Positions 3,536-46,502 of a stretch of DNA of 64,000 nucleotides are shown here, in pieces. The translations under genes and the position numbers were made by a program. The stretch covers positions 1-64,000 of the forward strand of contig CAYPGS010000018.1 of assembly GCA_964410395.1 (NCBI GenBank), given 5' to 3'. Source of the stretch: an uncultured bacterium. GTDB taxonomy: Bacteria > Krumholzibacteriota > Krumholzibacteriia > JACNKJ01. The notes under the pieces were generated by a model. That model did no database searches, had not been told where the DNA came from, and saw only the letters and a list, made by a program, of their open reading frames with translations. Within the stretch, counting starts at the first letter, position 1; each line of letters starts with the position of its first letter.

Positions 3536-3686
3536 CTCTTGCCCTCCCATGGCGAGTTCGGAGTTGACCGACTGTCCCTAAGCATACACCCGCCCGCACC
3601 GATCGTGACGAAGATAGTTGCAGTTTCAAACCCTTGCAGGTGTCATTAGCGTGACCAAGTGCTATCGCATGCGTGGAAATAGAGAT

Positions 3687-6700: not shown

Positions 6701-8464
6701 CGCCCCCGTGGGTAGGTTCGCAGGATGCACCACGGTGAGATCCTCGGGGTAGGCCGACCAGAGCTGCGTGACCGGATCGCCCATGAGGTTGTTCCACATG
6801 GACCAGATCTCCACCGTGTTCGGCTGCGAGATCTGGTAGTTGTGATAGAGCTCGTACTTGCCGCGGGTGTGGGCCGATCCGGTGCGGTGGTCCTCGCCGT
6901 TGATCGCGCCGTGCCAGGTGCCCATGTAGTAGCAGTTGTTGTAGCGGGTATGGGTGCCGATGGTGGCCGTGCCCACCGAGGCCACGCCGCCGCCGTTGGG
7001 CGCACGCAGGAAGGCCTCGGAGCGACAGTTCGAATCGCTGGCGAAGCTGCCCGTGTCGCAGGTCACGATGATGGAGAAGGGCAGTTCCTTCTGGTTGCCC
7101 AGGGCCATGATGTGGGCCGAACTCATGCCGCTCATGTGCCAGTAGCCGCGGTAGCCGAAGACGCTCAGGCCCTGGTTGATGCTGGCGGTCATGGCGCTGA
7201 GGAAGTTGCCGCTCCAGATGGTGTCGATCTGCGTGTAGTTGTGCTGCAGCAGCTGTTCCTTGAGCCACTGGTTCACGTAGATGGTGGTGATGCCCGAGCT
7301 GGACGGATCGCCCGTGAGCCCCGCGCGGGTGAACCAACCCGGATCGGTGATGGGAGGATCGGTCTCGTAGGTGACGATCTTGCTGACCACGTCCTCCAGC
7401 TCAGTGGTGCTGGTCACCGAGAGACGTCCGATGTGCACGTCGGCAAGCACATCGCCGCCCACGATGGTCGAGTAGTAGTGGTCGCCTTCGCCCCCGTAGC
7501 CGGAAACGCTCTCGAAGAAGCAGGGAACGGTGATGTAGCCGCTGGCGTCGCCGACCAGGGTGACATGCTCCAGAGGAGGATCGGCGGTGGCGTAGAAGTC
7601 GTCGATGTAGTCTTCCACCTGCCAGTTGTTGCTGCCGGTCTCGTCGGTGGAAACGGCCACCACATTGTAGCCCTGTTTCTCTCGCCATTCGATCAGGGGG
7701 CCCAGCCGGGACAACACGCCGCTGGTGTTGTCGTAGATCATCAGGTAGGAACCGGGCCCGACCTCGGTGACGCCCTCGCGGTAGTAGCCGGAGTCCTCGT
7801 AGTTCAGGACCATGTCCTTGTAGAGCAGGTGGAAGGACTCGGGAATGAACTCCGCGGGCTGAACCGTTTCGCTCGCGAACTCGATCTCGATCTCCATGCT
7901 GCTGGCCACCCGGACCTCCCTGCTCACCGGATCGTATCGCACGGGATTGATGCGCATGGCCGACACGCTCAGGCCGCGCATCATGCCGGGATCGCCGACC
8001 TCCACGTCGGGTGCGACATCGAGGCTGGGAGTCAGGTAGGCGCTTTCTTCCATGACGAAACGCTCGCCATCGTCGGGCTGCACGGGGAAGAGTCGCAGAT
8101 CTGTTAGCACCTGTTCGTTTCGCGACAGCACATTCACCCTGGCACCTGAACCTGCGGGCAAGGCGATGAGCTTGCTTATCACCGGCAGACCCGGATGTCC
8201 GTCGGCGCCGCGGATCCCGCCTCCGGGGATGCTGAGCGCGTCGAAGATCTCGCCGTCCGCCTCGAACTTCTCGAGGTTGAGCGCATCGAGTTCGAAGGAC
8301 ATCCGCAGTCCGTTTTCATCCTGCGACAGGATGCGGAACTCGGGTGCTGACGCAGCCGCGCCGCCTTCGACATCGAGCCGGTGGAGCTGCACTTCGGCGG
8401 CGGCACCAAGCGTGAACAGGCAAAGGGATACCATGGATAGAATCAGGGTGATCGGCGAACGCAT
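3761..8464 (-). CDS. Peptidase C25 (gingipain-like) giant secreted cysteine protease with FlgD-Ig/T9SS-type CTD
   Basis: 1567-aa ORF. Signal peptide MRSPITLILSMVSLCLFTLGAAAE. N-terminal region resembles the gingipain propeptide. Candidate catalytic His (GYRGYWHMSG) and Cys (IIVTCDTGSFAS). C-terminus is NPFNPKTSISFGLP...GVYFAKLSAGEIKLHQKMVLLK. GGAGG SD. Confidence 0.8.
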   Translation of the reverse strand: MRSPITLILSMVSLCLFTLGAAAEVQLHRLDVEGGAAASAPEFRILSQDENGLRMSFELDALNLEKFEADGEIFDALSIPGGGIRGADGHPGLPVISKLIALPAGSGARVNVLSRNEQVLTDLRLFPVQPDDGERFVMEESAYLTPSLDVAPDVEVGDPGMMRGLSVSAMRINPVRYDPVSREVRVASSMEIEIEFASETVQPAEFIPESFHLLYKDMVLNYEDSGYYREGVTEVGPGSYLMIYDNTSGVLSRLGPLIEWREKQGYNVVAVSTDETGSNNWQVEDYIDDFYATADPPLEHVTLVGDASGYITVPCFFESVSGYGGEGDHYYSTIVGGDVLADVHIGRLSVTSTTELEDVVSKIVTYETDPPITDPGWFTRAGLTGDPSSSGITTIYVNQWLKEQLLQHNYTQIDTIWSGNFLSAMTASINQGLSVFGYRGYWHMSGMSSAHIMALGNQKELPFSIIVTCDTGSFASDSNCRSEAFLRAPNGGGVASVGTATIGTHTRYNNCYYMGTWHGAINGEDHRTGSAHTRGKYELYHNYQISQPNTVEIWSMWNNLMGDPVTQLWSAYPEDLTVVHPANLPTGAGSVPVTVSNPGGPLEGARVALFKDGDIRVTGYTNAAGQVNLPIEAAGSGTLYVTVMSHNHMPYQGSLALGSVSAYAALENIQIDDDMSGDSQGNGDNRVNPGEAIELPLSLRNLGTGTANNVSATLSSADPYVTVVDDTETFGNIASGAEVWCAEDFDVLIASDAPGGHTIELDLVASDGFQSWTSLVELDVQSAAFTYEDFTFAGGDPEPGESGTLSVQIRNDGNIPGTAISAELSSSSSWIVINDPSGGFGSLPMGGSGENSSDPFSITVTSDCVPGHQAAFTMDLTFNGGATDVVNFSLTVGSAGAGDPTGPDSYGYYAVDNTDTGYEYAPVYDWVEVNPNQGGPGTDLGLGDYGWEQDDTKTVELPFEFSYYGEPYNKISICSNGWVAMGETEMNFYRNWNLPCAGGADNLIAVFWDDLYQQASNIVSTWYDEANHRYIIQWDNLKNRATSAFQDFELILLDPAYHPTSTGDGILLMQYKTVNNTDSTNGYGTVGIQNKDRTDGLTYTYWNSYPSSAATLTTGRAIAFMPVASVPLPSCVVTPESISKILPPDGTSLEMLHVSNQGEEGSVLNYSLEIIDPNLPRSVAGSWLSLDPSTYVVGSTVDFNVTVFNGSSDVEWLSEVTLDFPPGAVVNSGTDLVGPSGSLSFSGTGDGALITWFDHDGGWGNIYDGETATASINVSFPDVSGDLDLLYGIQGDIYGGDPHYIEDYFTLVMDGPAVNVLAPNGGEVWTVGEQQTISFSAGGGSGLVDIYLRRGILGNWDLIASDVDANDGSFQWNVDAPGNMNCKVKVADSGDPSVFDESDDFFTIQNSLDWISLDITEGQLQAGETDDIRVTLDATDMVEGTYEAEVLVVNNAGPSIAVPVTLIVNETGTEVEVVPASVFLSRNHPNPFNPKTSISFGLPETGKARLAVYDPAGRLVRVLVNGTLDEGIHAYEWDGRDQAGEQVSSGVYFAKLSAGEIKLHQKMVLLK

Positions 8465-14430: not shown

Positions 14431-14817
14431 ATGCGCCCCCAACCCCTGATCGCCGTTCGCGACGTCGAAGTCAGCAGCCGCTGGTACCAGCAACTGCTCG
14501 GCTGCCGATCCGGCCACGGCGGGAGGGAGTACGAGCGCCTGTACTTCGGCGAGGAATTGATCCTTCAGTTGCACCACTGGAATGCCCACGAACATCCCCA
14601 CCTGGGCGACGAGCGGTCGAAGCCCCACGGGAACGGCGTGCTTCTCTGGTTCCAGATCGACGACTTCGATGCCGCCGTCGGCCGAATGATCGAGCTGGAT
14701 GCCGAAATTCTGCACGAGCCGCAGGTCAATCCGCGGGCCAATCATCGCGAGGTCTGGCTGCGCGATCCGGACGGCTATGTGGTGGTTCTTGCCGGCAATG
14801 CGGGTGATCTGGGATAG
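14431..14817 (+). CDS. VOC/glyoxalase-family protein
   Basis: 128 aa. IAVRDVEVSSRWYQQLLG...ILQLHHW...VLLWFQIDDFDAAV...EVWLRDPDGYVVVLAG is the typical betaalphabetabetabeta VOC pattern. Confidence 0.75.
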   Translation: MRPQPLIAVRDVEVSSRWYQQLLGCRSGHGGREYERLYFGEELILQLHHWNAHEHPHLGDERSKPHGNGVLLWFQIDDFDAAVGRMIELDAEILHEPQVNPRANHREVWLRDPDGYVVVLAGNAGDLG

Positions 14818-14890
14818 CTGCCTGGCCCGTTTGACGCGTCCGCCTTCGAGTGGTAAAATCGATGCCTATCACGAAAAGGGAGGCATCGAG

Positions 14891-17761
14891 ATGAGGCAGC
14901 TCGCAATCCTGGTATCGGTCATTCTGCTCGTCGCCGGTGGAACCGTCGCCGGCGAGATCCATCCAGCGCTGGAGGACCGGCTCGCCGAACTCGGCGAGGA
15001 CGACACCATCAAGGCCGTGGTCTTTATGGCCGAGCAGGCCCCCATCGCCGAGTTGAATCTCGAGCTGAAATCGCAGCAGGCCAAACTGCGCGACCGCCAT
15101 CGCGAGGTGGTCGAGGCGCTGAAGGATGCCGCCCGTTCCCAGTCGGACCTACTCGACTACCTCGATGAGCGCGACGGTGTGCGTGGATACACCAGCCACT
15201 GGATCGCCAACCTCATCGTCGTCGTGGCGACTCGCGCCGAGATCGAGGCCATCGCAGCCCGCGACGACGTGCTTCAGGTGGAGCCCGACTTCACACCCGA
15301 ACTCATCGCGCCAACGGGCGAGTTCCTTCCAGGCGGCGATCGCCAGATCGGCGTCACCGAGGGCCTGCGCGCCATCCGCGCGCCCGAGGTCTGGTACGAG
15401 CTAGGCTACAACGGTCTGACCACCCTGGTGGGCAGCTTCGACACGGGCGTGGACGGCAGCCATCCCGCCCTGGCCGAGCGTTGGCGCGGCAACCACGCGC
15501 CCTGGAACGAGTGCTGGCTGGATCAGGTGGACAGCGGCACCGACTATCCCTTGGACCTGGACGGCCATGGCACCCACACCTGCGGCACCATCGCTGGCGT
15601 GGCGCCGGACGATTCCATCGGCGTTGCCTGGGGCGCCGAGTGGATCGCCTGCAACGGCATCGATCAACCCGTGAGCGAGGATTTCGACAACGACGTCTTC
15701 GCCGCCCTCGAATGGTTCACCGATCCCGACGGCGACCCGGGAACCATCGACGACGTGCCCGACGTGGTGCAGAACTCCTGGGGCGTGGGCGAGCACCTGA
15801 GTTACCCGTCCTGCTACGACCTCTGGTGGACCACCATCGACAACTGCGAGGCGGCCGGCGTGGTGACGGTCTGGTCGGCCGGCAACCGCGGCCCCGACTC
15901 CCTGACCATCGGCTCTCCCGCCGATCGGGCGGCGAGTCTGACCAACTGCTTCTCGGTGGGCGCGGTGGACGCCACCAACTTCGACTGGCCCTATCCCATC
16001 ACCGACTTCTCCAGCCGCGGTCCGACGACCTGCGAGGTGGACCCGGGCCTGGAGATCAAGCCCGAGGTGGTCGCGCCCGGCGAGGACGTCTATTCCTCGC
16101 TACCCGGCGGAATCTACGGATACAACAGCGGCACCAGCATGTCCGGACCTCACGTGGCCGGCGTGGCCGCGCTCATGCGCCAGGCCGACCCCAACCTCGA
16201 CGTGGACACCATCAAGCAGATCATCATGGACACGGCCGTGGACCTGGGAGATCCGGGCGAGGAGAACACCTACGGCCACGGCCTCATCGACGCCTACGCG
16301 GCGGTGAGTGCGGTGATCGAGGGCTTCGGAACCGTGGAGGGCAGCGTGGTCAACGCGAGTTGGGGCAGCGTGCCGCTCCCCGGAGCGACGATCGAGCTCG
16401 TGGGCGACGGCTACACCTGGTTCACGGACGAGGCCGGCAATTACAGCGGGCTCGCTGCGCCCGGCGACTACACCCTGCGAGCATCGATGCCGGGCTTCGA
16501 GTCGCAGGAGATTCCCATCACCGTGATCGGCGACCTGGCCATCGAGTTCCACTTCGCGCTCACCGACATCGCCGGGCCCATCATCACCGAAGTGAGCGAA
16601 CCCATCACCCTGCCCGGCGGCGGACTCGCCGATCCCATCACCGCGGACATCCTCGACTACAGTACCGTGGCCTCCGCCACCCTGCACTTCCGACTCAACG
16701 GTGGCGACTGGAACCTGAGCTCCATGGTTCCCCGCAGCGGCATCTATGAAGGACTGCTGCCATCGGTGCCGCCCAACACGGCCATCGACTACTACGTGAG
16801 CGCTCTGGACGGCCTGGGTCAGGAGGGCCTGGCGCCCGACGGCGCTCCCGCCGAGTTCTACACCCTGCTCGCCACCGAGCAGGTCTACGCCTACGACGGC
16901 GAGGATCCGCCCGACTTCCAGTGGCGCCTGGGCATGCCCGGCGACGACGCCACCGGCGGACACTGGGTGCGCGTGGATCCCGTGGGCACCGAGCAGAGCG
17001 GCGCGCCGGTGAATCCCGAGGACGACCACACGCCCGACCCCGGCGTGAAGTGCTTCGTCACGGGCAGCGGCACGCCCGGCGAAAACGCCTTCGCCAACGA
17101 CGTGGACGACGGCTGTACCACCCTGCAGAGCCCGGTCTTCGACATCAGCGAGGCCGACGCCGCCTTCATCAGCTACTGGCGCTGGTTCGCCAACGTGCTG
17201 GTCACCGCCGACGACGAATTCGTGGCCGACATCAGCTCCGACGGCGGCGACACCTGGCTGCCGCTGGAGCGGCAGAGCGTCAACGAGAACTTCTGGAAGA
17301 AGACATTCGTGGACCTGGACGGGCTCATCCCCTTCACCGATCAGGTGGTGGTGCGCTACGTGATCTGCGACTACGGACTGCCATCGCTCCTGGACGCGGC
17401 CGTGGACGACTTCTCCGTGGAGACCTACCGGGCCACCAGCACGGGCGTGGCCGACTGGACGCCGGCCTCGGGACCGGCCCTGAGCCTGGCGGGCAGCCAT
17501 CCCAATCCCTGGCGGCCCGACGGGGGCGAATCGCTAATCGGCTTCAGCCTGAACCGCAAGGCGGAGATCAGCCTGCGCATCTACGACATCTCCGGACGCC
17601 TGGTCCGAAGCCTGGCCCGAGGTGATTTCCCCGCGGGAAGTTACGAGATCTCCTGGGACGGGCGTGACTCGCGGGGCCGCGAGGCCTCCTCGGGCATCTA
17701 CTTCTACCGCCTCCAGGGGGCCGGGCAGGAGCTGAGCAGCCGGATGGTGCTCATCCGCTGA
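14891..17761 (+). CDS. Subtilisin-like serine protease (S8) with FlgD-Ig/T9SS-type CTD
   Basis: Catalytic triad motifs FDTGVDGSHPAL (Asp), HGTHTCGTIAG (His), GTSMSGPHVAGVAAL (Ser). Signal peptide MRQLAILVSVILLVAGGTVAG after a GGGAGG SD. C-terminus is ...GIYFYRLQGAGQELSSRMVLIR. Confidence 0.85.
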   Translation: MRQLAILVSVILLVAGGTVAGEIHPALEDRLAELGEDDTIKAVVFMAEQAPIAELNLELKSQQAKLRDRHREVVEALKDAARSQSDLLDYLDERDGVRGYTSHWIANLIVVVATRAEIEAIAARDDVLQVEPDFTPELIAPTGEFLPGGDRQIGVTEGLRAIRAPEVWYELGYNGLTTLVGSFDTGVDGSHPALAERWRGNHAPWNECWLDQVDSGTDYPLDLDGHGTHTCGTIAGVAPDDSIGVAWGAEWIACNGIDQPVSEDFDNDVFAALEWFTDPDGDPGTIDDVPDVVQNSWGVGEHLSYPSCYDLWWTTIDNCEAAGVVTVWSAGNRGPDSLTIGSPADRAASLTNCFSVGAVDATNFDWPYPITDFSSRGPTTCEVDPGLEIKPEVVAPGEDVYSSLPGGIYGYNSGTSMSGPHVAGVAALMRQADPNLDVDTIKQIIMDTAVDLGDPGEENTYGHGLIDAYAAVSAVIEGFGTVEGSVVNASWGSVPLPGATIELVGDGYTWFTDEAGNYSGLAAPGDYTLRASMPGFESQEIPITVIGDLAIEFHFALTDIAGPIITEVSEPITLPGGGLADPITADILDYSTVASATLHFRLNGGDWNLSSMVPRSGIYEGLLPSVPPNTAIDYYVSALDGLGQEGLAPDGAPAEFYTLLATEQVYAYDGEDPPDFQWRLGMPGDDATGGHWVRVDPVGTEQSGAPVNPEDDHTPDPGVKCFVTGSGTPGENAFANDVDDGCTTLQSPVFDISEADAAFISYWRWFANVLVTADDEFVADISSDGGDTWLPLERQSVNENFWKKTFVDLDGLIPFTDQVVVRYVICDYGLPSLLDAAVDDFSVETYRATSTGVADWTPASGPALSLAGSHPNPWRPDGGESLIGFSLNRKAEISLRIYDISGRLVRSLARGDFPAGSYEISWDGRDSRGREASSGIYFYRLQGAGQELSSRMVLIR

Positions 17762-21648: not shown

Positions 21649-22647
21649 ATGATGCCGAGATTCGCCTTGCTTGCCCTTTTCGCAATGGCCAACGCCGTCG
21701 GTGTTTCTGCGGGGGATCTCTCGGGGGGACCGGTCCGGCAGGGCGGCGACACCATCGAACAGGCCACGATCATTCCCGGCCTGCCCTTCCACGCCACGGG
21801 CTCCACGGTGGGCTTCGAGAACGACTACGAAGAGGAATGTCCCTGGTCGGGCGGAACTGCGGCCGACGTGGTCTATGTCTATTCGCCCAGCGTGGACGTG
21901 ACCATCGACATCAGCAGCTGCGGCCCCCTCTACGACACCAAGCTCTACGTCTACGAAGATGAGTTCACGCCCGGCGCACCCCTGGCCTGCAATGACGATC
22001 TCGCCGGCTGCCCCGAGCAGCTCTACGTGGCCTGGATTCGCGGGGTCGGGCTAGTGGGCGGGCACGACTACTATATCGTCGTGGACGGCTGGGCGAATCA
22101 CTCGGGCGGCTACTGGCTCCACGTCGTCGAGTCGCCCGTCGGCGAGACCTGCGATCCGACGGACTATCCCGTGCTCCCCTTCTTCGAGGACGAGACGGAC
22201 TGTCACGACGACTACGTGGACGAGTTCAACAGCGGTTGCGAGAGCCCGCTCGAACCCTTCACCCATGTGCCGTCCACTGTGCTTATCGCGGGAAAGAGCG
22301 GAACCTTCAACGGAAACACGAGCATGGATAGCGACTGGTACCAGATCCTCGTCGAACACAGCTCCACCGTGACCTTCCTCGCCTGCGCGGGCTATCCCAT
22401 GACTGTTTGGCTCTTCGAGGGAGGGCCCTCCTGCCCGCCCACCGACGTGCTCAGCCAGGTTGGCGGCGATCCCTTCCTCGTGTTCGGGGATGGCGTCGAT
22501 GTCGAGCCGGGACCCTACTGGTTCGCGGTCCACCCCACCGAGCAATGGGGCACGCCCTGCGGCGCGGACTATCTGCTCTACATCGAGACCCACACTTCTG
22601 CATCCCGGTTGATGGACTGGGGAGCGCTGAAATCCATGTATCGGTAG
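21649..22647 (+). CDS. Secreted protein with two PPC (pre-peptidase C-terminal)-like domains and a ...DWGALKSMYR tail
   Basis: Signal peptide MMPRFALLALFAMANAVGVSA. Domain motifs are GDTIEQATII...YYIVVDGW and DSDWYQILVEHSSTVTF. GGAGGAGG SD. Confidence 0.7.
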   Translation: MMPRFALLALFAMANAVGVSAGDLSGGPVRQGGDTIEQATIIPGLPFHATGSTVGFENDYEEECPWSGGTAADVVYVYSPSVDVTIDISSCGPLYDTKLYVYEDEFTPGAPLACNDDLAGCPEQLYVAWIRGVGLVGGHDYYIVVDGWANHSGGYWLHVVESPVGETCDPTDYPVLPFFEDETDCHDDYVDEFNSGCESPLEPFTHVPSTVLIAGKSGTFNGNTSMDSDWYQILVEHSSTVTFLACAGYPMTVWLFEGGPSCPPTDVLSQVGGDPFLVFGDGVDVEPGPYWFAVHPTEQWGTPCGADYLLYIETHTSASRLMDWGALKSMYR

Positions 22648-22736
22648 CCTAAAGAATATTCGGTCAGGCAATTGCGCTCAAGCCGATCTCCCTGCTACAC
22701 TATTCAAGATTGTACACGTGTACAGGGAGGTGCGGA

Positions 22737-23416
22737 ATGCGGATCCGTTTCGCTGCCATCGGCTTGCTCATTCTTCTCGGCCCGGCCTGGGCCAGACCCT
22801 CACGAAAGATGGATTCATCAATCCCGGCTCGGGGGATCCAAATTGGCGAGATGTTCGAAGCCTGGTCAACGACGGAAGCTTCGAGTTCGGTGAGTGCGAG
22901 TCGGGAAGCGAGTGGACCTGCTGGAGCACAACTAGTTGCGAGTGGATCGTCAACCCGATCGATACGTGGGGTTATCCGGCCTACGATGGAATCAATGCCG
23001 CTTGGTTAGGAGGATTCTGCGATGGAAAGGCCAACAACAACTCCTATTGCCAGGAGTATTTTAACGCCTGCATGCATCTGAACTTCTATTTTTCAAGTTA
23101 CATAAACTCTGGATGCAGCCAGTTCACTATCACGATGCGCGGAAACACAGTCCATTCCAGGACAATGGAATTCGATGACCACAACTATGGAACTTGGGAG
23201 ACCGCGGCTTCCTACTGGGGACTAATCGATATATCAGCCTACATCGGCATGACCTCGGAACTGTGCTTTTTGTGGACCGCGTGCGGGGAAGACACAAACG
23301 GCGACGGCTACCCCGATGAGGACAATGACAACATACTCATCGATTGTATCTACGGTTCTGAGTGCCAGTTGCCAACCGAAGTCTACAGTTTCTCTTTAGT
23401 CAAAACCCTGTACTAA
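22737..23416 (+). pseudogene. Cys-rich secreted protein (paralogue of 23507..24145), -1 frameshifted after the signal peptide; tail ...FSLVKTLY
   Basis: AGGGAGG SD, ATG 22737 and signal peptide MRIRFAAIGLLILLGPAWA are in frame 3. The homologous mature domain (DGSFEFGECESGSEWTCW...) is in frame 2 (track ORF 22718..23416). Confidence 0.65.
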
Positions 23417-23506
23417 GATTATCACGATGGAAACCAGTTGTATGACTTCTACAGAGGAGACATCCCATACCATCGTGAAGACTCTGTACTAGTGTTGGGA
23501 GGAGCA

Positions 23507-24145
23507 ATGAATCCTTCAAAAGCGATTCTAATCCTACTAGTCGTCACGACTTTTCCTACGGCAGCCGCCTCGACTGTGCAACGAGACTGGACCGTCCCCG
23601 ACTACAGCTTCGAGAATGGTCTCTGCGGTGAAGGCAGCGACTGGACCTGCTGGAGCAGCACCGACTGCCAGTGGATCATCGACGCGGAAGATGTCTGGGG
23701 AGTGCCCGCGGTGCATGGCGAGAACGTCGCCTGGCTGGGCGCCTACTGCAACGGCCTCGCCAACAACAACTCCTTCTGCCAGACCCTGTTCATCCCATGC
23801 TTCCAATATGACTTTCACTGGATGGCCTACATCATGGCGGCCTGTGGCACTCTGACCATCACCCTGGACGGCGAGGTCCGTCTTCAGCACACGATGAACG
23901 AGTCCGACCACAGCTACGGCGAATGGCAGAAAGCTTCCGAGACCTGGGGCAGCATAGACACCTCCTACGAGTATGGAGGCTATGCCACCTTCTGCATCGA
24001 GTGGACCGCCTGCGGAGGAGATCTCGACGGCGACGGATGGCCCGACACCCTGAACGACAGCGTGATCATCGATGTGATCCAGGGCGATGGTTGTGAGGTG
24101 CCCGTCCAGACACTGAGCTTCTCGGCGGTCAAAAGCCTCTACTAG
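23507..24145 (+). CDS. Cys-rich secreted protein, tail ...FSAVKSLY
   Basis: GGGAGGAG SD and ATG 23507. Signal peptide MNPSKAILILLVVTTFPTAAA. Aligns along its whole length with 22737..23416 (DWTCWSSTDCQWII / EWTCWSTTSCEWIV; ANNNSFCQ / ANNNSYCQ). Confidence 0.75.
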   Translation: MNPSKAILILLVVTTFPTAAASTVQRDWTVPDYSFENGLCGEGSDWTCWSSTDCQWIIDAEDVWGVPAVHGENVAWLGAYCNGLANNNSFCQTLFIPCFQYDFHWMAYIMAACGTLTITLDGEVRLQHTMNESDHSYGEWQKASETWGSIDTSYEYGGYATFCIEWTACGGDLDGDGWPDTLNDSVIIDVIQGDGCEVPVQTLSFSAVKSLY

Positions 24146-24149
24146 CCAC

Positions 24150-24177
24150 AAAAAAAGCCCGCCGCTTCTGGCGGGCT
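24150..24177 (-). terminator. Rho-independent terminator (bidirectional hairpin between convergent genes)
   Basis: AAAAAA-AGCCCGCC-gcttct-GGCGGGCT. It reads as hairpin plus a U-run on the minus strand. Confidence 0.75.
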
Positions 24178-24198
24178 CCCGATTCGACTCAAACACAT

Positions 24199-24924
24199 CT
24201 AGCGATACAGCGCCTTGATGGTGCTCCAGTCGGTGCTCTCTGAGGCCGTGGCTTCCTCTTCCACCGAGAAAGCGTCCAGGTGGATCCAGGCCTCGTAGCC
24301 GTCGGCCACCCGCACGGTGAGATAGTCGCCGCCCACCGGCGCCACGAATCCACCGACCACGTGGGTCCAGCCGCCGGTGCCCGAGGCCGCGACGAAGGCC
24401 AGGGTTCCGAAGCTGGCGTCGCTGGCCGAGATGCCCACCTCGACCACGCCGACGTCGGGGTCAAAGTCCAGATTGGACTCGGCGTAGAACTCGATGGTGT
24501 AGGCGGTGCCCGCGACGATGGACGAGGACAGGCCGAAGGAGAAGGCGTCGGTCACGCCGCCCGTGACCGCAGTCCTATGGATGGAGATCTTCGACACGCC
24601 GCTGGCCGGCGCGCTGGCATAGCCGCAGCTGGTGCCGTCGTTCATGACGTCGATCTCGTCCGCGCCGCCGAAGGCGACGATGTCGGACATGCCTGCGGTC
24701 ACGGTCGCATTGGCCAGATTGAAGTTGCAGCCGGCGGCGATGGTGGTGGCTTCGAAGTCGCCGTTCAGGATGATGTTCGAGCGTTCGCTGGAGCTGGGGG
24801 GCGACTCCGCGGGAATCTCGATCTCGGTGCTCTCAAGCGGCGATGAAGTGCCCTCAAACGCGAAGGCCGAAGCGGTCAATCCGAAGAGTGAGAACATGGC
24901 AAACAATACGATCAGTTTCTTCAT
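24199..24924 (-). CDS. Secreted protein, tail ...DWSTIKALYR
   Basis: Start at ATG 24924. Signal peptide MKKLIVLFAMFSLFGLTASAFA. Beta-rich sequence. Confidence 0.7.
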   Translation of the reverse strand: MKKLIVLFAMFSLFGLTASAFAFEGTSSPLESTEIEIPAESPPSSSERSNIILNGDFEATTIAAGCNFNLANATVTAGMSDIVAFGGADEIDVMNDGTSCGYASAPASGVSKISIHRTAVTGGVTDAFSFGLSSSIVAGTAYTIEFYAESNLDFDPDVGVVEVGISASDASFGTLAFVAASGTGGWTHVVGGFVAPVGGDYLTVRVADGYEAWIHLDAFSVEEEATASESTDWSTIKALYR

Positions 24925-25125
24925 CTTGGACCATCCTTGTTGAGACGGGTGAGGGGAGGATGGTTTCATCCTCGCGAAACAAGGCTAGCAAGGCTATTCG
25001 AAAAGATGAAGAAAATTCGCCATACTTGATTATCGGGCCCATGGGATATCAAGGCCTGAGAAATGAAAGCCGGGCTAAGCCGTTTGAACCGAGGGAAATA
25101 CGTTCGACTCGGATGTGCAGTGGCC

Positions 25126-26010
25126 TCAGTCCACCTCTTCGGCGCCCTTCAGTTCGAAGTAGCGCCCTTCGAAGAAGTATCCCAGCTTGGGCGGACGCCC
25201 GTAGCGCGCCGCAGCGGAGTCGATGGCGCCGAGGATATCCCGCTTGAGATAGCGCCCCGACAGGTGCATGAGCACCAGGTGCTTCACGCCGGCCTCGGCG
25301 GCCGCGCGGAAACTGGCCTCGATGTGGCCGTGGCTCATGCGGCTCTCTTTCATCTCATCAGAGTTCAGAAAGGTCGAATCGATGAGCAGGGTCTCGGCGC
25401 CGCGCAGCTCGGTGACGTCCTCCACCGGCCGCGTGTCCCCGGTATAGACCAGCAGCGGATGCCAGACCGCTTCGAGGACGGCCTCCTTGCCCTTCTCCTG
25501 AACCAGGCGCCGGATCTCGTCGCCGTCCGCGCCCGCGAATTCGGTTTTGGGAGCGTGGCGCTTCTCCTCGATGCGCCAGCCCAGCGCCTGCCATCCCCGG
25601 GTGTGATCCACGGCGAAGGAACGTACGCGGGTGCGGCGTCGGGTGACCTCCACGTCCACCGTCGCCCCGGGGCCGACGGGATGCCAGTCCAGGTCGTAGC
25701 GCAGGCGATGCTTCTGTTTCTTGTCGAGGTACTCGCGGAGGTATCCGATGAAGGGATCGCCCTCGGGATAGTACACCGCGATGGGGATCTCGCGGTCGCC
25801 GTTGCTCAGGTTGCGCAGATTGACCACGCTGGGCAGCCCCGCGATGTGGTCCTCATGGCCATGGGTGAGGAAGACCTTTCGGATGCCGAAGATCTTCTTG
25901 CCCAGGGCCTGGGATATGCCCTCCCCCGCGTCCAGCATGAGCCGGGCGGGCTTGTAGTAGAACCAGGTGGAGTAGAGGGCCTTGGAGTAGCCGGTCAGCG
26001 TGTTCTGCAT
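25126..26010 (-). CDS. MBL-fold metallo-hydrolase (RNase Z/ElaC-like)
   Basis: 294 aa. LMLDAGEG...VFLTHGHEDHIAGLP (HxHxDH) and a C-terminal HLSGRY motif. Confidence 0.75.
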   Translation of the reverse strand: MQNTLTGYSKALYSTWFYYKPARLMLDAGEGISQALGKKIFGIRKVFLTHGHEDHIAGLPSVVNLRNLSNGDREIPIAVYYPEGDPFIGYLREYLDKKQKHRLRYDLDWHPVGPGATVDVEVTRRRTRVRSFAVDHTRGWQALGWRIEEKRHAPKTEFAGADGDEIRRLVQEKGKEAVLEAVWHPLLVYTGDTRPVEDVTELRGAETLLIDSTFLNSDEMKESRMSHGHIEASFRAAAEAGVKHLVLMHLSGRYLKRDILGAIDSAAARYGRPPKLGYFFEGRYFELKGAEEVD

Positions 26011-26217
26011 AGGGGCCTACCATAGTTTCCAGCCTACCGGGGCGCAAGGGTCCGACTTGAAGGATTCCGTTCCCTCGACTAAGCGGCAAAATTCAGAAAT
26101 CACAGATAACTCTTTTGTATTCAATCACTTAGGAAAAACTCCGGGTGCCCATGATCGAGCTTGTTTGGTATTATGAAGATTACTCACCCATAGACGATCC
26201 AGCACCATGGAGGCAAC

Positions 26218-26811
26218 ATGCGCACATTGCTCACGGCCCTAATCATCCTCGCCACAAGCAGCTTCGCCGCGGCCGTGGATATCACCATCACACCCCTGGA
26301 GTACGCTCCGGAAGGTCGTTGGTACGAAGGCCCCGAAAGCTTCGAGAACGCCTTCCCCCCTAGCGGGTGGCACCTGAACATCGAGAACTCGTCATACACC
26401 TGGTTCAAGGGCGGAGAGCCGGCCTTCGACGGCGTCCACAGCGCCACCATCTTCGGCGACACCCACGGCAGCTACTCGGACGAGTGGTTGGGCTTCAACT
26501 ACTCCTACACTGCCAACGAGATTCTCACCTTCGCCATGCGTGGCGACCGGACCCTCACCGGCACCTGTTACATGTACATCGGTGAAGATCTGATCCTCGA
26601 CTTCAGCGCAGATTGGCCCCTGAACTGGGACGAATGGGGACTGGTCACCGTGGACCTCGGAACCACGAACTACGTGGGCTTCCCCAACGTGGCATTCGAC
26701 TGGAACTACGTGGGCACCATGGGCCCTACCGTCCGCCTGGACATGGTCGAGATCACGCAGGGCGTCTCGACTGCGGTCGGCGATTGGAGCACGCTGAAGA
26801 CCCTCTACTAG
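26218..26811 (+). CDS. Secreted protein, tail ...DWSTLKTLY
   Basis: Signal peptide MRTLLTALIILATSSFAAA. GGAGG SD. 197 aa. Confidence 0.7.
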   Translation: MRTLLTALIILATSSFAAAVDITITPLEYAPEGRWYEGPESFENAFPPSGWHLNIENSSYTWFKGGEPAFDGVHSATIFGDTHGSYSDEWLGFNYSYTANEILTFAMRGDRTLTGTCYMYIGEDLILDFSADWPLNWDEWGLVTVDLGTTNYVGFPNVAFDWNYVGTMGPTVRLDMVEITQGVSTAVGDWSTLKTLY

Positions 26812-33078: not shown

Positions 33079-33660
33079 ATGAGGTATTTGGCGATTGCCT
33101 TCCTATTGATTCCCGCCGTCGTTCAGGCCAACTCCATCGGAGTCTACAACCTGGGCGGCCCCTACGATCCCGGCGGCGGCTGAGGCAGCGGTTGGCACTG
33201 CGGGACGGTCGTCCCCTACGTACCCACCGATCTGGTCGTCGTCGCGAATTTCACGCTTGAAGAGGGCATCACGGCCGCCGAGTTCAGAATCGACAATCTC
33301 CCCACCAATGACGGATATCCTTCCGGAACGGTCACCGTGAGCTCCACCTCCGACCTGGTCATCGGTGACTTGTGGTGGGATTTCTCCATCGCATGGTCCG
33401 AGCCCGTCGGGGCCGGCCTGGGCTACGCGGTCATCGCCGAGATCGAATTGCTCATGTTCGATCCGGCCTGGATCGGTTCGGACCGATGGCTCCAGGTTGC
33501 GCCGGGCTACGACTGCGACTGCCTGGTACTCGTCGACTCGATGTTCGATACCCATGATGCCTGGGGAGACACCATGATCCTGAACTGCAATGCCGATTGC
33601 TGGATGTGCCTGACGGCCACGGCGGAAAGCAGCTGGTCGGAAGTGAAGTTGCTCTACTAG
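33079..33660 (+). CDS. Secreted protein (paralogue of 42098..42670), interrupted by an in-frame TGA at 33181..33183; tail ...SSWSEVKLLY
   Basis: GAGGAGGA SD, ATG 33079 and signal peptide MRYLAIAFLLIPAVVQA are in the same frame as track ORF 33337..33660. A single TGA lies between them. Homology to the paralogue spans both sides of the TGA. Confidence 0.6.
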
Positions 33661-38956: not shown

Positions 38957-41839
38957 CTACTTGATGAGAACCATGGTCCGGCTCTTCACCTCTCCGTTCG
39001 CCGAGAGGCGATAGAGGTAGACGCCGCTGCCCACGGGGTTGCCCTTCTGATCGCGACCTTCCCAGATGACGCGGTGCTCGCCGGCGACCATCTGGTCGGC
39101 GATGAGGGTGCGCACCAGGCGGCCGTTGACGTCGAAGACCTTCAGATCCACGCGTCCGTCGGTCTCAAGAGCGAACTTGATCTCGGTGCGCGGGTTGAAG
39201 GGATTCGGATGGTTCTGCTCGAGGCGCAGGGGCACGCCGATGGTGAACTCGTCGTCCACGTTCGTGCCGCCGATGACCGCGTGGATCATGAGGTCATCCA
39301 GGGCGCCCTCGACCAAGGTCGGGATGGTGCCGTCCTTGACCTCGAACTTGAACTGAACCTGTCCGGGCTGTGCGAACAGATCGTGCAGGTAGAACTCGTT
39401 GTCCTTCCAATACGCTTCCATCGAACCGGTGTCGACATCCAGTTCGACCCAGTTGGACCCGCCGTCATTCGAGATGGACGCCGTCCAGGAATCACCCGTG
39501 CGACCGTAGTACCAGTACCAGTAGCTGATGTAAACCTCGCTGGCCTGGGTCAAGTCGTAGATGGGCGAAAGCAGCGTGACCGTACCGCCGGTGACGTCGT
39601 TGAAGTTGTCGGCCTCGCCGGGGGTGTGCTGACCGGTCACCCAACACAGGGTTCCGGGGTGGCTGATGTCGTCCTCGGGCTGTGCGGTGGTTCCGATGGG
39701 ATCCGCGCGCTCCCAGTGTCCCGTGCTGGCGGTGGCTTCGGTGCTCCAACCGGCGTCGATCTCCATGTCCTCGAGGCGCCAGGCCACGAAGAACTTGTGG
39801 AAGACGTTCGGAGCGCCCCAAGGCGAGGTTCCCGTGGTGCCCACGGTGTCCTCGGCGTAGATGTAGTAGTCCACCTGACCGGCCTGCTGCCCCGGAATCT
39901 GTCCGAAGAAGTAGGAACCGTTCATGGTATCCATATCCACGCTGTTCCAGCTGCCGCCGTTGTGGCGGTAGTAGATGGTGGCGGATTCGGGATCCAGCGG
40001 ACCCTCGGTGGACGAGATGGTCGCGCCCACGGTGTAGGGACCATCCATGTCGCCGGTGTCCGTCAGCGGAGTGTGCTCGAAGAGCACGCCCACGAGGATG
40101 GGCGGCACGTCGTAACCGTGATGCGTGGCCGCCGCGGAGAGAATGCTGTAGTGAGGCGTTCCATTGTCGAGGTCGCCGTCGTCGTCGTCGGCCATGAAGG
40201 TCCAGAAGACCTGGTCGGGCTGGTTGGTGGGATGCCCCATCAAACGCCCGTAGTGCCAGCGCTCGGCGGCCATGATGGTGCCCAACTCGTCACCGTAGTT
40301 GGACTGCATTCCCATCATGATGTCCCAGTGGAAGCCCGCGATGATCTGACCGTCGTGGTGGATCTGCCCGTTCATGTCTTCGGGGTAGATCAGGTCGTTG
40401 TCGGAGTTGCGGATTCCGTCGGTGCAGTTGCCCAGGTAGAAGCCGCGGCCGATGATGGACTCCTGCGTCATGAGGTTGGCCAGAACGTCGGAGTTACCTT
40501 CACCCAATCCCTGATCGCCCTGCCATCCGAGGATGGCGGCCTGCACGCCGTGACCGAACTCGTGATGCACCACTCCCTGGATCTCACCGGTGTTGGCGCA
40601 GCCGCCGCCTTCGGTGAAGAAGTTGATGCTGCCGTTCCAGTAGGCATTGCAGTTGTCGTTGAGGCTCACGTAAGCGTTCATCCGCTGGTTCGGCAGCGCG
40701 AACTCCGGAGCCCAGAGCTGGAAGAAGTCATGAATATCGTTGACGGCGTTGAAGACGTCGCGCTCGTCGTTCTGAGCGTTGAGGTCATCGTAAGAGATCG
40801 TCAGCGGAGTCCCTTCCCAGGCGGTTCCCGTGAATGTCGCCTCGGGGCCCCCCGAGTTCGTGATGTTGCAATAGGGACCATAGAGGTCGGCCGTGATCTG
40901 GGCCGTACCGCTGGGGCTGCTCCAATCACCATTCTCGTCGGTATAGACCGTTCCGCTGCCCGCAACCTGAACGCGCAGGTAGGGCACGGACTGATCATGG
41001 ATGCCGTTGCACCAGGTGTCCGGCTGCACTTCGGAGTTCGTGTCGCCTTCGATGAAGAAGTGCACATCGTTGTAGCGCCAGACGATCTCGCCGGTATGGG
41101 CGTCCACGTGGGTCACCCAGATACCGACCGGATCGGCCGTATGCACGCGCAGGCGCCAGACCAGGTGATACTCCACGCTCTCCTCGCTGAGGGGCACAGG
41201 GAGCACGACCAGTTCGGGCGCGGCTTCGACGCTGTCCTCGGCGGGATTGAAGCCGACATCCATGCGCGCGATCTGCTCAGCCTGATCGGCGGAGATGGCA
41301 GGCATGGCGGACAGATCGATATCGTTGTAGAGATCCGAGCCCGCAGCAATCAAGCGTCCATCTTCGGTGAAGGCGGCGAAGGCCTTGCCCTGCCAGACTT
41401 CGATTCCCTCGAAGGTCTGAGCGAGATGAGCGACCCACTTGCCCTTGTAGTTCACGCGATCGGTGATCTGCAACTCAACGCCGGCGGCACCGAGGTGCTC
41501 GGCCTGCTCGTCGAAGAGACGAAGCGTGGCGGCGTCAAGATCCACCGCGGAGCGCATGCCAGCGGTGTAGGCAGTGTTGCCGTAGACGATATGAGGCGTG
41601 CCGGCCTGGGAGTTCCAAGACCAGACATGCCAGTTGCCGCCCAGATCCTGGGCGAGTCCCTCTTCCACCGCGGCGCTAGCCTGGAGCGTCGCGAAGGATT
41701 CATAGATGTGGAGGTCGTAGGTGCCGAGAGGGATGGCGAAATCTTGCGAGTGTTCCGGTGCCTTGAACGCCTGGCTCGTGATGAGAACCAGCGCAAGACC
41801 GAGGGTGGTCAGAGCAAGGCTGAAGCGGGACTGCTTCAC
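38957..41839 (-). CDS. Thermolysin-clan (M36/M4-like) secreted zinc metalloprotease with FlgD-Ig/T9SS-type CTD
   Basis: VVHHEFGHGVQAAILG (HExxH) plus GLGEGNSDVLANL (EGxSD third-ligand motif). AGGAGG SD and GTG 41839. Signal peptide VKQSRFSLALTTLGLALVLITSQAFKA. C-terminus is NPFNPRTEIKFAL...GVYLYRLSANGEVKSRTMVLIK. Confidence 0.8.
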   Translation of the reverse strand: MKQSRFSLALTTLGLALVLITSQAFKAPEHSQDFAIPLGTYDLHIYESFATLQASAAVEEGLAQDLGGNWHVWSWNSQAGTPHIVYGNTAYTAGMRSAVDLDAATLRLFDEQAEHLGAAGVELQITDRVNYKGKWVAHLAQTFEGIEVWQGKAFAAFTEDGRLIAAGSDLYNDIDLSAMPAISADQAEQIARMDVGFNPAEDSVEAAPELVVLPVPLSEESVEYHLVWRLRVHTADPVGIWVTHVDAHTGEIVWRYNDVHFFIEGDTNSEVQPDTWCNGIHDQSVPYLRVQVAGSGTVYTDENGDWSSPSGTAQITADLYGPYCNITNSGGPEATFTGTAWEGTPLTISYDDLNAQNDERDVFNAVNDIHDFFQLWAPEFALPNQRMNAYVSLNDNCNAYWNGSINFFTEGGGCANTGEIQGVVHHEFGHGVQAAILGWQGDQGLGEGNSDVLANLMTQESIIGRGFYLGNCTDGIRNSDNDLIYPEDMNGQIHHDGQIIAGFHWDIMMGMQSNYGDELGTIMAAERWHYGRLMGHPTNQPDQVFWTFMADDDDGDLDNGTPHYSILSAAATHHGYDVPPILVGVLFEHTPLTDTGDMDGPYTVGATISSTEGPLDPESATIYYRHNGGSWNSVDMDTMNGSYFFGQIPGQQAGQVDYYIYAEDTVGTTGTSPWGAPNVFHKFFVAWRLEDMEIDAGWSTEATASTGHWERADPIGTTAQPEDDISHPGTLCWVTGQHTPGEADNFNDVTGGTVTLLSPIYDLTQASEVYISYWYWYYGRTGDSWTASISNDGGSNWVELDVDTGSMEAYWKDNEFYLHDLFAQPGQVQFKFEVKDGTIPTLVEGALDDLMIHAVIGGTNVDDEFTIGVPLRLEQNHPNPFNPRTEIKFALETDGRVDLKVFDVNGRLVRTLIADQMVAGEHRVIWEGRDQKGNPVGSGVYLYRLSANGEVKSRTMVLIK

Positions 41840-42097
41840 GGGGAGCCTCCTATATGGAAGGGGGACATGGGGATTGGATGAGGCGATAATTGTAAATTGT
41901 ACCACATATGAACGGAAATTGGGAACGGGGAAGGGGCCGTGCTGCGGTTCTATGGGGAAGATCGGGGCCCCAACCCCTCATCGAGGCTGACGCCCCGAAT
42001 TCAAGAAGGTGAAGATTTTCCAAGAAAATATAAACTTGCCAGGTCCGCAAGAGGCTAACAGCGTTACCCACCACTTCAAAAAACAGCCAGTTGTGGA

Positions 42098-42670
42098 TCA
42101 GAATAGCTGCTTAATGGCACTCCAGCTGGATTCATGGGTCGCTGTCGGGAACCAGGAACAGTAGCACCAGGATGGATCCGTGCAGTTGAAAGTAAACTGC
42201 CCTCCCATGACATCGACGATCTCGAAATCCGCGTCCACGACCACGAGGCACTCGCAGTCGGCTCCCTCTCCAACCGTCATGATCCAGTCATCGAGGATCC
42301 AGGTGGGATCGAACATCGTGAATTCGATGGATCCCAGGTGGATCAAGGGACCCGGCTGGGGCTCGGAGAAGGCGATGGAGAAGTCCCAGGTGATGTCGCC
42401 GATGATCAAATCGCTGTTCCAGTACTCGTAGGCAGATCCTATCGGATAACCTGGGTTACCCGGATAGTTGGCAATTCGGAATTCAGCGGCCGTGACTGCA
42501 TCGATATCCGGTACGACGGCCATCACATGCACCATCATGGGGACGTACTCTTCGATCGGAGCATGGCATTCGGAGCCCCAGACATCGTCGGCGAAGATTC
42601 CGATGAGACCCTGGGCAATGCCAGGACCGGCTACGGCGAGGCACAACATCACAAGCACGAGTTGGCGCAT
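42098..42670 (-). CDS. Secreted protein (paralogue of 33079..33660), tail ...SSWSAIKQLF
   Basis: GGGAGGG SD and ATG 42670. Signal peptide MRQLVLVMLCLAVAGPGIAQG. Lies between the two M36-like protease genes. Confidence 0.7.
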   Translation of the reverse strand: MRQLVLVMLCLAVAGPGIAQGLIGIFADDVWGSECHAPIEEYVPMMVHVMAVVPDIDAVTAAEFRIANYPGNPGYPIGSAYEYWNSDLIIGDITWDFSIAFSEPQPGPLIHLGSIEFTMFDPTWILDDWIMTVGEGADCECLVVVDADFEIVDVMGGQFTFNCTDPSWCYCSWFPTATHESSWSAIKQLF

Positions 42671-45765: not shown

Positions 45766-45872
45766 GAACCGGAGACCTCCGATGGAGCGGGAATGGGATT
45801 CGGTGCAGGGTTTAAGTATACCGCTTCCGGCCCCCGCGACCAAGGCCGCCGGCCATCGAGGACTCCTGGATC

Positions 45873-46502
45873 CTAAAGCCCTCGCAGGAAGGGGTTTGAG
45901 GCGGCCTCCTCCACGAGACTGCTGTCGGGACCGTGTCCGCTGTGAAGAACCGTGGAAGGCGGCAGCGCATCGATGATGCGCTCCTTGATCGAGCGCATGA
46001 GCGTGTCGTAGTCGCCGCCCGGCAGGTCGGTGCGGCCGATGGATCCGGCGAAGAGGGTGTCGCCGGCGAAAAGATGACCGTTCAGGCTGAGACACACGCC
46101 CCCGGGACTGTGACCCGGCGTGTGGATGACGCGCACCTCCAGCTCCCCCACCGCGACGGTTTCGCCATCGCGAAGGGGCTCGTCCAGGCGAGGAGGCTTC
46201 GCGGGCTCGATGCCATAGAGGCCACAGATCTGCTCGAGGTTCTCGACCAGGAAGCGGTCGTCCTCATGCATGCGGAAGGGGATCTCGAGACGGCTCTGCA
46301 GCTCCGCCGCGCCCAGCACGTGGTCCACATGGCCGTGAGTGTTCAGGATGCTCTCGATCTGGAGTCCATGCTGCTCGGCGCGGGCGATGAGGGTCTCCAC
46401 CTCGCCGCCTGGATCCACCACGAAGGCCTTCTTCGTCGCGGGATCGCCCACGAGGAAGGTGTTCTCCTGGAATGCGCCCACGGTGAGCATCTCGACGATC
46501 AT
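45873..46502 (-). CDS. MBL-fold hydrolase (hydroxyacylglutathione hydrolase-like)
   Basis: 209 aa. ILNTHGHVDHVLG (HxHxDH) and VIHTPGHSPGG. Confidence 0.8.
   Translation of the reverse strand: MIVEMLTVGAFQENTFLVGDPATKKAFVVDPGGEVETLIARAEQHGLQIESILNTHGHVDHVLGAAELQSRLEIPFRMHEDDRFLVENLEQICGLYGIEPAKPPRLDEPLRDGETVAVGELEVRVIHTPGHSPGGVCLSLNGHLFAGDTLFAGSIGRTDLPGGDYDTLMRSIKERIIDALPPSTVLHSGHGPDSSLVEEAASNPFLRGL

Follow-up and report, generated by a model that had tools for sequence, protein, structure and literature searches.

A short C-terminal tail on unrelated exported proteins of Krumholzibacteriota and neighbouring phyla: a probable sorting or anchoring tag

Seven genes in a 64-kb stretch of DNA from an uncultured bacterium of the Krumholzibacteriota (contig CAYPGS010000018.1, positions 1 to 64,000; hereafter the window) encode proteins that end in the same short peptide, here called the tail. 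CarB from this DNA is 72-75% identical to proteins named Krumholzibacteria, Eisenbacteria and Latescibacterota. No described model or precedent for the tail was found, and its most fitting reading is that of an as yet undescribed C-terminal tag for retention or sorting. An earlier note on this DNA had proposed a family-independent sorting or anchoring tag, and that proposal is supported by the position of the tail, the signal peptides of its carriers, the many bodies to which it is attached, the slot that it shares with known tags and the lack of any matching model. By comparison with those tags, we consider it highly probable that the tail serves sorting or anchoring of some kind. As its sequence suggests, it may well be a portable C-terminal address or anchor tag of ~17 residues that is read by one conserved component of the cell envelope. 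To judge from the genomes in which it occurs, its users are Krumholzibacteriota- and Eisenbacteria-like bacteria together with neighbouring candidate phyla of the Fibrobacterota-Chlorobiota-Bacteroidota (FCB) group. Annotation pipelines predict surface proteins from C-terminal sorting signals, and LPXTG, PEP-CTERM, GlyGly-CTERM and the domains of type IX secretion systems (T9SS) each led to a secretion or anchoring machine. If our reading is right, the tail would join them as a signal built differently, without a membrane-spanning segment, and borne by much of the complement of small secreted proteins of the binding or adhesin-like type in several phyla.

With the window translated in all six frames, the pattern [WF][SG]x[ILV]Kx[LM][YF] matched seven times, and at every match the stop codon follows either directly or after a single Arg. 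A looser regular expression recovered the identical seven tails, all of them at the positions claimed in the earlier note, and no eighth match to the pattern exists in the six frames. From the six-frame residue frequencies 0.01 matches would be expected by chance, none was obtained in 200 shuffles, and the probability that all seven would fall within two positions of a stop by chance is ~2e-10. The copies differ in their codons (TCT, TCG, AGC or AGT for Ser; AAA or AAG for Lys) and in their stop codons (TAG, TAA or TGA), which argues that the tail is selected at the peptide and not at the DNA level. On the same ground, a terminator or RNA motif imposing the peptide was rejected; a terminator-like site at most ~30 nt from the stop codon was present in gene 5 only, among the seven window genes. 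After the tails had been trimmed, BLAST linked only genes 2 and 3 (E 5e-59) and genes 6 and 7 (E 1e-32), so that the window holds five sequence-unrelated bodies where at least four had been claimed. Signal peptides, reported earlier for all seven proteins, are intact and in frame in five of them, while in genes 2 and 6 they are reached only across a frameshift or a TGA. Nor are the first five genes consecutive, as had been stated, because between genes 4 and 5 there is an RNase Z-like gene (25126..26010, minus strand).

The tail is widespread outside the window. We took its canonical form, [ST]WGx[IL]KxLYR, from the homologues of gene 4, rendered it as a DNA pattern extended by the stop codon, and scanned one genome per species (596 Gb, for which our own arithmetic, assuming uniform base composition, gives ~40 chance matches). 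The pattern was found at no fewer than 120 loci (≥120) of these species-representative genomes. Among the matches listed, the named records comprise ~45 Eisenbacteria, ~8 Krumholzibacteriota, 4 Latescibacterota, 3 Cloacimonadota, 3 Gemmatimonadota-labelled and 2 Fibrobacteraceae-labelled entries and 1 Zixibacteria; a few odd labels belong to short contigs (a few kb), probably misbinned, and two evident chance matches, in Lachnospiraceae and Mucilaginibacter, have no open reading frame (ORF). In the 811 kb of sequence around the listed matches (~8 kb each; the sampled loci), the tail ends at least 141 ORFs of at least 60 aa. For the 19 occurrences that were not forced by the pattern, 17 lie within 2 residues of the stop, one lies at 3 and one is internal; together with the seven out of seven in the window, this places the motif at the extreme C-terminus, as proposed. 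Several metagenome-assembled genomes (MAGs) were matched in two or three separate loci, and tails can be dense: seven in the 64 kb of the window and at least 10 in 21 kb of locus L124.

The carriers have the look of exported proteins. A crude detector found a signal peptide in 112 of the 141 tail ORFs, compared with 85 of 290 other conserved ORFs used as controls, in line with the proposed co-occurrence, and the tail ORFs that failed were mostly cut at the edge of a locus or began with GTG or TTG; of the complete tail ORFs, almost all have a signal peptide. Only two tail proteins have a lipoprotein-like N-terminus. The tail was not present on cytoplasmic-looking proteins in the sample, let alone as often as on exported ones. 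When the 143 tail ORFs of at least 100 aa (136 from the listed loci plus the window's seven) were clustered by BLAST, 77 clusters resulted, 52 of them singletons. Pfam recognised 28 families among 134 pooled tail proteins, all typical of extracellular proteins, including beta-helix, LTD (lamin-tail), NHL, MAM, Chlam_PMP, CBM20, TED (thioester), Cleaved_Adhesin, pectate lyase and DNRLRE/CBM96. Tail proteins are small; their median length is 240 aa. The viral-classed contigs of IMG/VR also gave three matches, about the number expected by chance (L126:3152-3184, L127:214-246 and L128:12449-12481); the three ORFs end in TWG[GSR]IK[AT][FM]YR, the upstream [ST]-W-G context of all three is the typical one and looks genuine, and in one the N-terminus resembles a signal peptide or lipobox. 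These contigs may be prophage or misclassified host DNA.

The motif of 8-9 residues first noticed is real, but it is only part of a longer conserved module of ~17 residues, P-[TV]-P-[VT]-E-x-x-[ST]-W-[GS]-x-[IVL]-K-[AS]-L-[YF]-(R). Numbering from the Trp, the positions that are conserved although the pattern left them free are P at -8, [TVS] at -7, P at -6, [VTA] at -5, E (or R/K) at -4 and [ST] at -2. Conservation was measured on 101 tails retrieved by homology of the body alone and hence unbiased by the DNA pattern. In this set Trp is present in 92%, Ser or Thr at -1 in 92% and Glu at -4 in 70%; the residue after Trp is G in 63% and S in 30%, with V, I or L two positions on. Lys is found in 99% and is never replaced by Arg (99-100% across both tail sets); it is followed by A or S (85%), then L (78%), then Y (76%) or F (23%). 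The last residue is R in 62%, and otherwise D, E, N, Q, K or none, ~13% of the tails ending in Asp or Glu. Upstream, a Cys occurs at -14 to -6 relative to the Trp in 62% of the tail proteins, against 19% expected from the composition of the bodies; this Cys may serve to close the body by a disulfide immediately ahead of the tag, or it may belong to the signal.

Within a genome, unrelated bodies have a dialect of the tail in common. The window and a ~85-90% identical relative (L121) use W/F-S…L-Y(R), with S in place of G and the Arg often absent, and in L125 the dialect is HSL[ST]x[VI]KxLF[NDR]. Locus L124 (L124:1107-17385; contig_56187 of ERZ25039459) is a tandem array of at least 10 paralogues of gene 1, several of them frameshifted and all with the dialect TTWSxVKALY[DER]; one FG-GAP protein bearing a FlgD_ig domain sits among them, and there is a TonB-dependent receptor Plug gene at the edge.

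Proteins with the same body can end differently, and it is this exchange that relates the tail to known sorting tags. The body of gene 4 ends in a conserved …HIDNFSL. What follows is a short linker and the tail in ten relatives, VPEP, a hydrophobic helix and RRRR in ~16 others (PF07589 was flagged in two of these PEP-CTERM-type homologues, P0029 and P0032), a PF18962 T9SS domain in one and a dockerin-like end in one. Similarly, a strict regular expression finds the tail in 77 of 119 relatives of gene 1, and variants occur in more; others end in FlgD_ig or PF18962 domains, IPTL-CTERM-like transmembrane (TM) anchors or dockerin-like ends. As far as these homologues can tell, the tail is interchangeable with recognised localisation modules. 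The body is complete without it, since the PEP-CTERM homologues have the entire body and no tail. Because VPEP and PVEP occupy the same slot, one might speculate that the tail derives from PEP-CTERM; MAFFT aligns the two only loosely. Five homologues of gene 1 (P0138, P0153, P0155, P0158 and P0161) carry a second short ending in place of the tail, …VPVELQSF[DSE][IV][DER]-COOH, which has a PVExx[ST][WF] core in common with it and, as P0155 lies on a 733-kb contig, is not a truncation. To judge from the shared core, this ending may be another tag or a relative of the tail.

AlphaFold2 models built with family alignments were obtained for proteins 1 and 4, which represent two unrelated families. 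Protein 1 (mean predicted local distance difference test score, pLDDT, of 85) has a fold that resembles the tandem collagen-binding domains of ColG, a linker at residues 317-323 and a tail helix at 324-330; protein 4 (mean pLDDT 84) has a jelly roll scoring above 93 and a tail helix at 233-240. Both models thus consist of a confident beta-sandwich body, a low-confidence linker of 7-9 residues and an isolated tail helix. On a helical wheel, W, I/V, L and Y share one face, K and R stand beside it and the two variable positions hold small residues. Of the canonical consensus and the six window tails for which the hydrophobic moment was computed, all but WSEVKLLY have a larger value at 100 degrees, as for a helix, than at 170 degrees, as for a strand; the helical moment is 0.55-0.61 in R-terminated tails, 0.39 in WSTLKTLY and 0.27 in WSEVKLLY.

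These predictions bear directly on the likeness to an outer-membrane beta-signal that the earlier note had pointed out, and on the concern, raised with it, that the tail might be the last strand of a domain common to all its carriers. Like the beta-signal recognised by the beta-barrel assembly machinery (BAM), the tail is C-terminal with an aromatic residue near its end, and four of the seven window tails have an aromatic last residue, lacking the terminal Arg. Arg nonetheless closes 62-96% of the tails in the wider sets, no alternating hydrophobic pattern is seen, the bodies fall into 77 clusters, and those modelled are soluble beta-sandwiches, not barrels, from which the tail is detached as a helix behind its linker. 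Both the beta-signal and the shared-domain readings are contradicted by the AlphaFold2 models and by the tail-less homologues, and we regard them as extremely improbable.

None of the models in Pfam or NCBIfam (release 20) covers the tail in the seven window proteins, in ten canonical ones or in the 134 pooled tail proteins. A sequence search of the PDB with the canonical 27-residue end gave nothing, and the literature, subscription-only papers lying outside its scope, held nothing on such a tail: tail strings gave irrelevant matches only, and neither work on C-termini in Eisenbacteria nor work on type IX secretion in these phyla mentioned one. The tail may have been missed so far because all its carriers are uncultured. 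We compared it with the seven criteria for C-terminal sorting signals set out by Haft (10.1101/2023.06.07.544157). The tail agrees with criteria 1, 2, 3, 6 and 7, as it is C-terminal, occurs several times per genome, has invariant residues, accompanies signal peptides and ends many families; it departs from criteria 4 (a hydrophobic segment of TM length) and 5 (2-5 basic residues), that is, from the tripartite architecture, for only 8-9 residues follow its signature, including the invariant Lys, with at most one terminal Arg.

The closest parallel in the slot is the PEP-CTERM/exosortase system (TIGR02595, PF07589; PMC1569441), whose signal likewise lies at the extreme C-terminus of many signal-peptide families, several per genome, follows the same body and starts with Pro and Glu (VPEP, compared with P-[VT]-E(-P) in the tail). 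Unlike the tail, with its 8-9 amphipathic residues and at most one Arg, PEP-CTERM has a TM helix and an Arg cluster, and neither TIGR02595 nor PF07589 matched any of 17 tail proteins at E<=1. The predicted tail helix is too short to span a membrane, which makes an intramembrane reader of the exosortase type unlikely; no exosortase (EpsH/XrtA) is encoded in the window and none stood out in the 811 kb of sampled loci. Dockerins are also C-terminal modules, serve non-covalent surface docking and end homologues in the same slot, and their docking to cohesin has been reported with a scaffoldin anchored by a C-terminal domain (CTD) in Cloacimonadota (PMC8542988). They differ in being duplicated Ca-binding domains of ~60-70 aa that pair with cohesin, while the tail, over which Pfam found no dockerin match, has ~17 aa without duplicated Ca-binding F-hand repeats and no known cohesin-like partner. 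The tail lies outside PEP-CTERM, T9SS types A and B, dockerins, the beta-signal and the Braun-lipoprotein (Lpp) type of tether, and by analogy would work most like a docking or retention peptide.

The organism itself carries a second, well-known kind of C-terminal tag. A FlgD_ig domain ends all five large proteins of the window, a C25 peptidase, an S8 subtilase, two metalloproteases and a WD40 protein, and the two that were scanned with the NCBIfam model for T9SS type A, the C25 peptidase (TIGR04183, 27.8 bits; cut-off 23) and the metalloprotease at 38957-41905, both passed. Since these domains occur alongside the tail, the organism uses at least two different C-terminal tags. The C25 peptidase has, in addition, a gingipain-type propeptide and a weak, sub-threshold likeness to the T9SS sortase PorU (NF033707, 59.7 bits; cut-off 420); it is a candidate processing protease for the secreted proteins of this organism.

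One could ask whether the tail is a minimal signal for export across the outer membrane, read by the T9SS-like machinery that also serves the FlgD-Ig domains or by another secretion system, and possibly removed later. The type A domain is, like the tail, a family-independent C-terminal tag, found in the same genomes and often in the same loci: tail lineages use FlgD_ig/TIGR04183, and 49 of the 120 listed 8-kb loci also hold a member of a large BLAST cluster dominated by CTD proteins. The same body families alternate between the two, and extracellular-type bodies (pectate lyase, CBM20, adhesin repeats, thioester domains) carry a tail with only a Sec signal. Known T9SS signals, on the other hand, are folded Ig-like domains of ~70-100 aa, the type A domain measuring ~80 aa and sitting on large hydrolases, whereas the tail is helical, has ~17 aa and sits on small proteins. 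The tail proteins gave no match to TIGR04183, PF18962 or PF13860, nor, in NCBIfam at E<=1, to the type B model TIGR04131, and the tail has no sequence likeness to the …RKMVLLK end of the local CTDs, so that the distinction drawn in the earlier note between the two tags of the window stands. No T9SS core gene is present in the window, and none stood out when the ORFs of the sampled loci were clustered. All in all, an export signal of this kind seems to us rather improbable.

A short amphipathic helix could also be a direct in-plane anchor in the membrane or in lipopolysaccharide (LPS), with no need of a dedicated reader. The C-terminal amphipathic anchors of penicillin-binding proteins 5 and 6 (PBP5/6) and the membrane-targeting sequences of MinD and FtsA are comparable direct membrane anchors, and FtsA ends in …GSWIKRLNSWLRKEF, with the S-W-x-K-x-L flavour of the tail. 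They are short, terminal, aromatic and basic amphipathic helices that come after a flexible linker, and a C-terminal amphipathic helix like that of PBP5-type anchors is predicted in the AlphaFold2 models of tail proteins. The free helix in these models, the high helical moment of the R-terminated tails, the combination of Trp/Tyr with Lys/Arg and the lack of a conserved neighbouring gene in the sampled loci all fit such an anchor. Nevertheless, the helix has just 8-9 residues, below the about 15-20 aa of known autonomous anchors; its moment is low in WSEVKLLY and WSTLKTLY, and the tails that end in an acidic residue fit poorly. The targeting sequences of PBP5/6, MinD and FtsA are poorly conserved, longer or dimer-acting, and MinD and FtsA are cytoplasmic, in contrast to a tail whose W, K, S/T and E are invariant across phyla. 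Generic lipid binding requires neither a Lys that is never Arg, nor a conserved Trp, cap and Glu (or the Gly/Ser position kept with them across phyla), nor a common dialect. We therefore judge direct anchoring to be unlikely.

The invariant Lys raises still another alternative, a covalent tether to peptidoglycan or some other polymer, by analogy with Braun lipoprotein, whose C-terminal …KYRK is linked to peptidoglycan by L,D-transpeptidases. Conservation of 99-100% without a single Arg, a place within five residues of the C-terminus and the K-x-L-Y-R context would suit this idea. The Lys of Braun lipoprotein, though, is C-terminal, whereas that of the tail stands 4-5 residues from the end, and only 3-4 of 137 canonical tails end in …YRK; nor is any transpeptidase gene linked to the tail genes. 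A tether of this type would be very unlikely.

What we favour instead is recognition of the tail by a protein of the envelope. The carriers would be small proteins, mostly non-catalytic modules of the binding or adhesin type, exported by Sec through a type I signal peptide. Behind the folded body, often closed by a Cys, would come a Pro/Thr/Val/Glu spacer, P-[TV]-P-[VT]-E-x-x, and the chain would end in an amphipathic helix of two turns with a Ser/Thr cap, W-[GS]-x-[IVL]-K-[AS]-L-[YF]-(R). One conserved component of the envelope, most probably a protein receptor, would read this free helix non-covalently, and the reading would keep or place the protein at the envelope or the surface, beside the large hydrolases delivered by their T9SS-type domain. 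A non-covalent protein reader is favoured because the Lys is never Arg, because Trp, the Ser/Thr cap and Glu persist from phylum to phylum, and because unrelated bodies in one genome share a dialect, features that point weakly to a protein receptor rather than a lipid. A PDZ-like clamp on a precisely placed carboxylate is disfavoured, since zero to three residues may trail the end of the motif. More tentatively, there is possibly a dedicated envelope sorting or retention pathway in Krumholzibacteriota, Eisenbacteria, Latescibacterota, Zixibacteria and Cloacimonadota, in which a free helix with its invariant Lys would be read by a receptor or an enzyme.

Several points weigh against recognition by such a reader. 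The claim of localisation comes from comparative inference and all carriers are uncultured. Every signal for which a sortase-type enzyme is known is defined by a TM segment and an Arg cluster, both of which the tail lacks, and an amphipathic helix of W, Y, K and R could bind lipid or LPS directly, with no receptor. The prediction of the helix is itself of moderate confidence only (tail pLDDT 56-78). The canonical tails were picked out by a pattern that fixes W, G, K, Y and R, so that only the homology-retrieved set measures conservation fairly, and the evidence from dialects comes in part from recent arrays of paralogues. Finally, an all-against-all BLAST of 3,915 ORFs from the listed loci and the window yielded no candidate receptor or enzyme among the neighbours in the 811 kb; the recurrent clusters without a tail were CTD-bearing proteins, a mix of kinase, sigma-54-activator and PD40 proteins, ABC ATPases, response regulators and antisense artefacts.

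Eukaryotic signals such as KDEL and PTS1 (-SKL) are very short, family-independent free C-terminal peptides that are read by a receptor and not by a membrane-embedded protease. They belong to another domain of life and to other compartments and have no homology to the tail; to our knowledge, no counterpart has been described in the bacterial envelope. If our reading holds, the tail would be such a counterpart, rather than one more tripartite signal of the sortase type, and its pathway would run parallel to the T9SS-type domain and address hundreds to thousands of surface proteins. Metagenomes, from soil, sediment, groundwater and wastewater, are the sole source of what is known of the phyla that carry it. 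A hidden Markov model of the tail would annotate thousands of their 'hypothetical proteins' as envelope or surface proteins and give a phylogenetic profile with which to hunt for the reader, and a tag of 17 residues is attractive as a handle for display or anchoring. Should the tail be just a lipid-binding helix, the result would be more modest, still useful for annotation.

The tail-bearing genes of the window and the five large proteins with the other tag are collected in Table 1.

Table 1. Tail-bearing genes, their tails, and proteins with FlgD_ig or T9SS type A domains in the window.
Feature	Position (nt)	Strand	Description
Gene 1	21649..22647	+	332 aa; signal peptide, tandem beta-sandwiches like PPC/collagen-binding domains, linker, tail
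Gene 1 tail	22618-22644 (with stop to 22647)	+	WGALKSMYR
Gene 2	22737..23416	+	Paralogue of gene 3; signal peptide from ATG 22737, body ORF 22718..23416
Gene 2 tail	23390-23413 (with stop to 23416)	+	FSLVKTLY
Gene 3	23507..24145	+	212 aa; signal peptide, Cys-rich body, family not assigned
Gene 3 tail	24119-24142 (with stop to 24145)	+	FSAVKSLY
Gene 4	24199..24924	-	241 aa; signal peptide, jelly-roll body, acidic linker
Gene 4 tail	24202-24228 (with stop from 24199)	-	WSTIKALYR
Gene 5	26218..26811	+	197 aa; signal peptide, body of no recognised family
Gene 5 tail	26785-26808 (with stop to 26811)	+	WSTLKTLY
Gene 6	33079..33660	+	Paralogue of gene 7; in-frame TGA at 33181-33183
Gene 6 tail	33634-33657 (with stop to 33660)	+	WSEVKLLY
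Gene 7	42098..42670	-	190 aa; signal peptide, Cys-rich body, family not recognised
Gene 7 tail	42101-42124 (with stop from 42098)	-	WSAIKQLF
WD40 propeller protein	2240..3550	-	FlgD_ig C-terminal domain
Gingipain-like C25 peptidase	3761..8464	-	1567 aa; FlgD_ig / T9SS type A C-terminal domain
S8 subtilase	14699..17761	+	FlgD_ig C-terminal domain
Metalloprotease (HExxH, PepSY propeptide)	38957..41905	-	T9SS type A C-terminal domain; adjoins gene 7
Second metalloprotease (FTP propeptide)	42838..46095	-	FlgD_ig C-terminal domain

Some of these genes deserve a remark. The body of gene 4 showed a weak likeness to choice-of-anchor C and CBM4_9 in the NCBIfam and Pfam scans. Gene 2 is not the single ORF 22737..23416 that had been assumed: the interval is 680 nt long, and the signal peptide MRIRFAAIGLLILLGPAWA (window 22737-22800) is out of frame with the body ORF. 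Either gene 2 is a pseudogene with a frameshift or the assembly is in error here; gene 3, the paralogue with which it shares 48% identity, is intact.

The in-frame TGA of gene 6 comes after …GGPYDPGGG and is also found in the orthologue of the close relative (L121:2049-2636, minus strand). Compared between the two, ~25 nt before and ~60 nt after the TGA are near-invariant, and the remainder of the gene is ~80-85% identical; a GGGAC-GGUC-GUCCC hairpin lies ~19 nt downstream of the TGA. To go by this conservation, the TGA could either encode selenocysteine (U-x5-C) in a protein exported by Sec or be a stop that has been conserved. A selenocysteine insertion sequence (SECIS) was looked for around it, with no match in Rfam and a fold energy not below that of shuffled sequences. 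Gene 5 is missing from the syntenic locus of L121, which has an additional intact paralogue of genes 6 and 7 (L121:1454-2026, with the tail DWSALKAMY) adjoining an A24 prepilin-peptidase-like gene; from this comparison, tail-bearing genes seem to turn over fast between close relatives.

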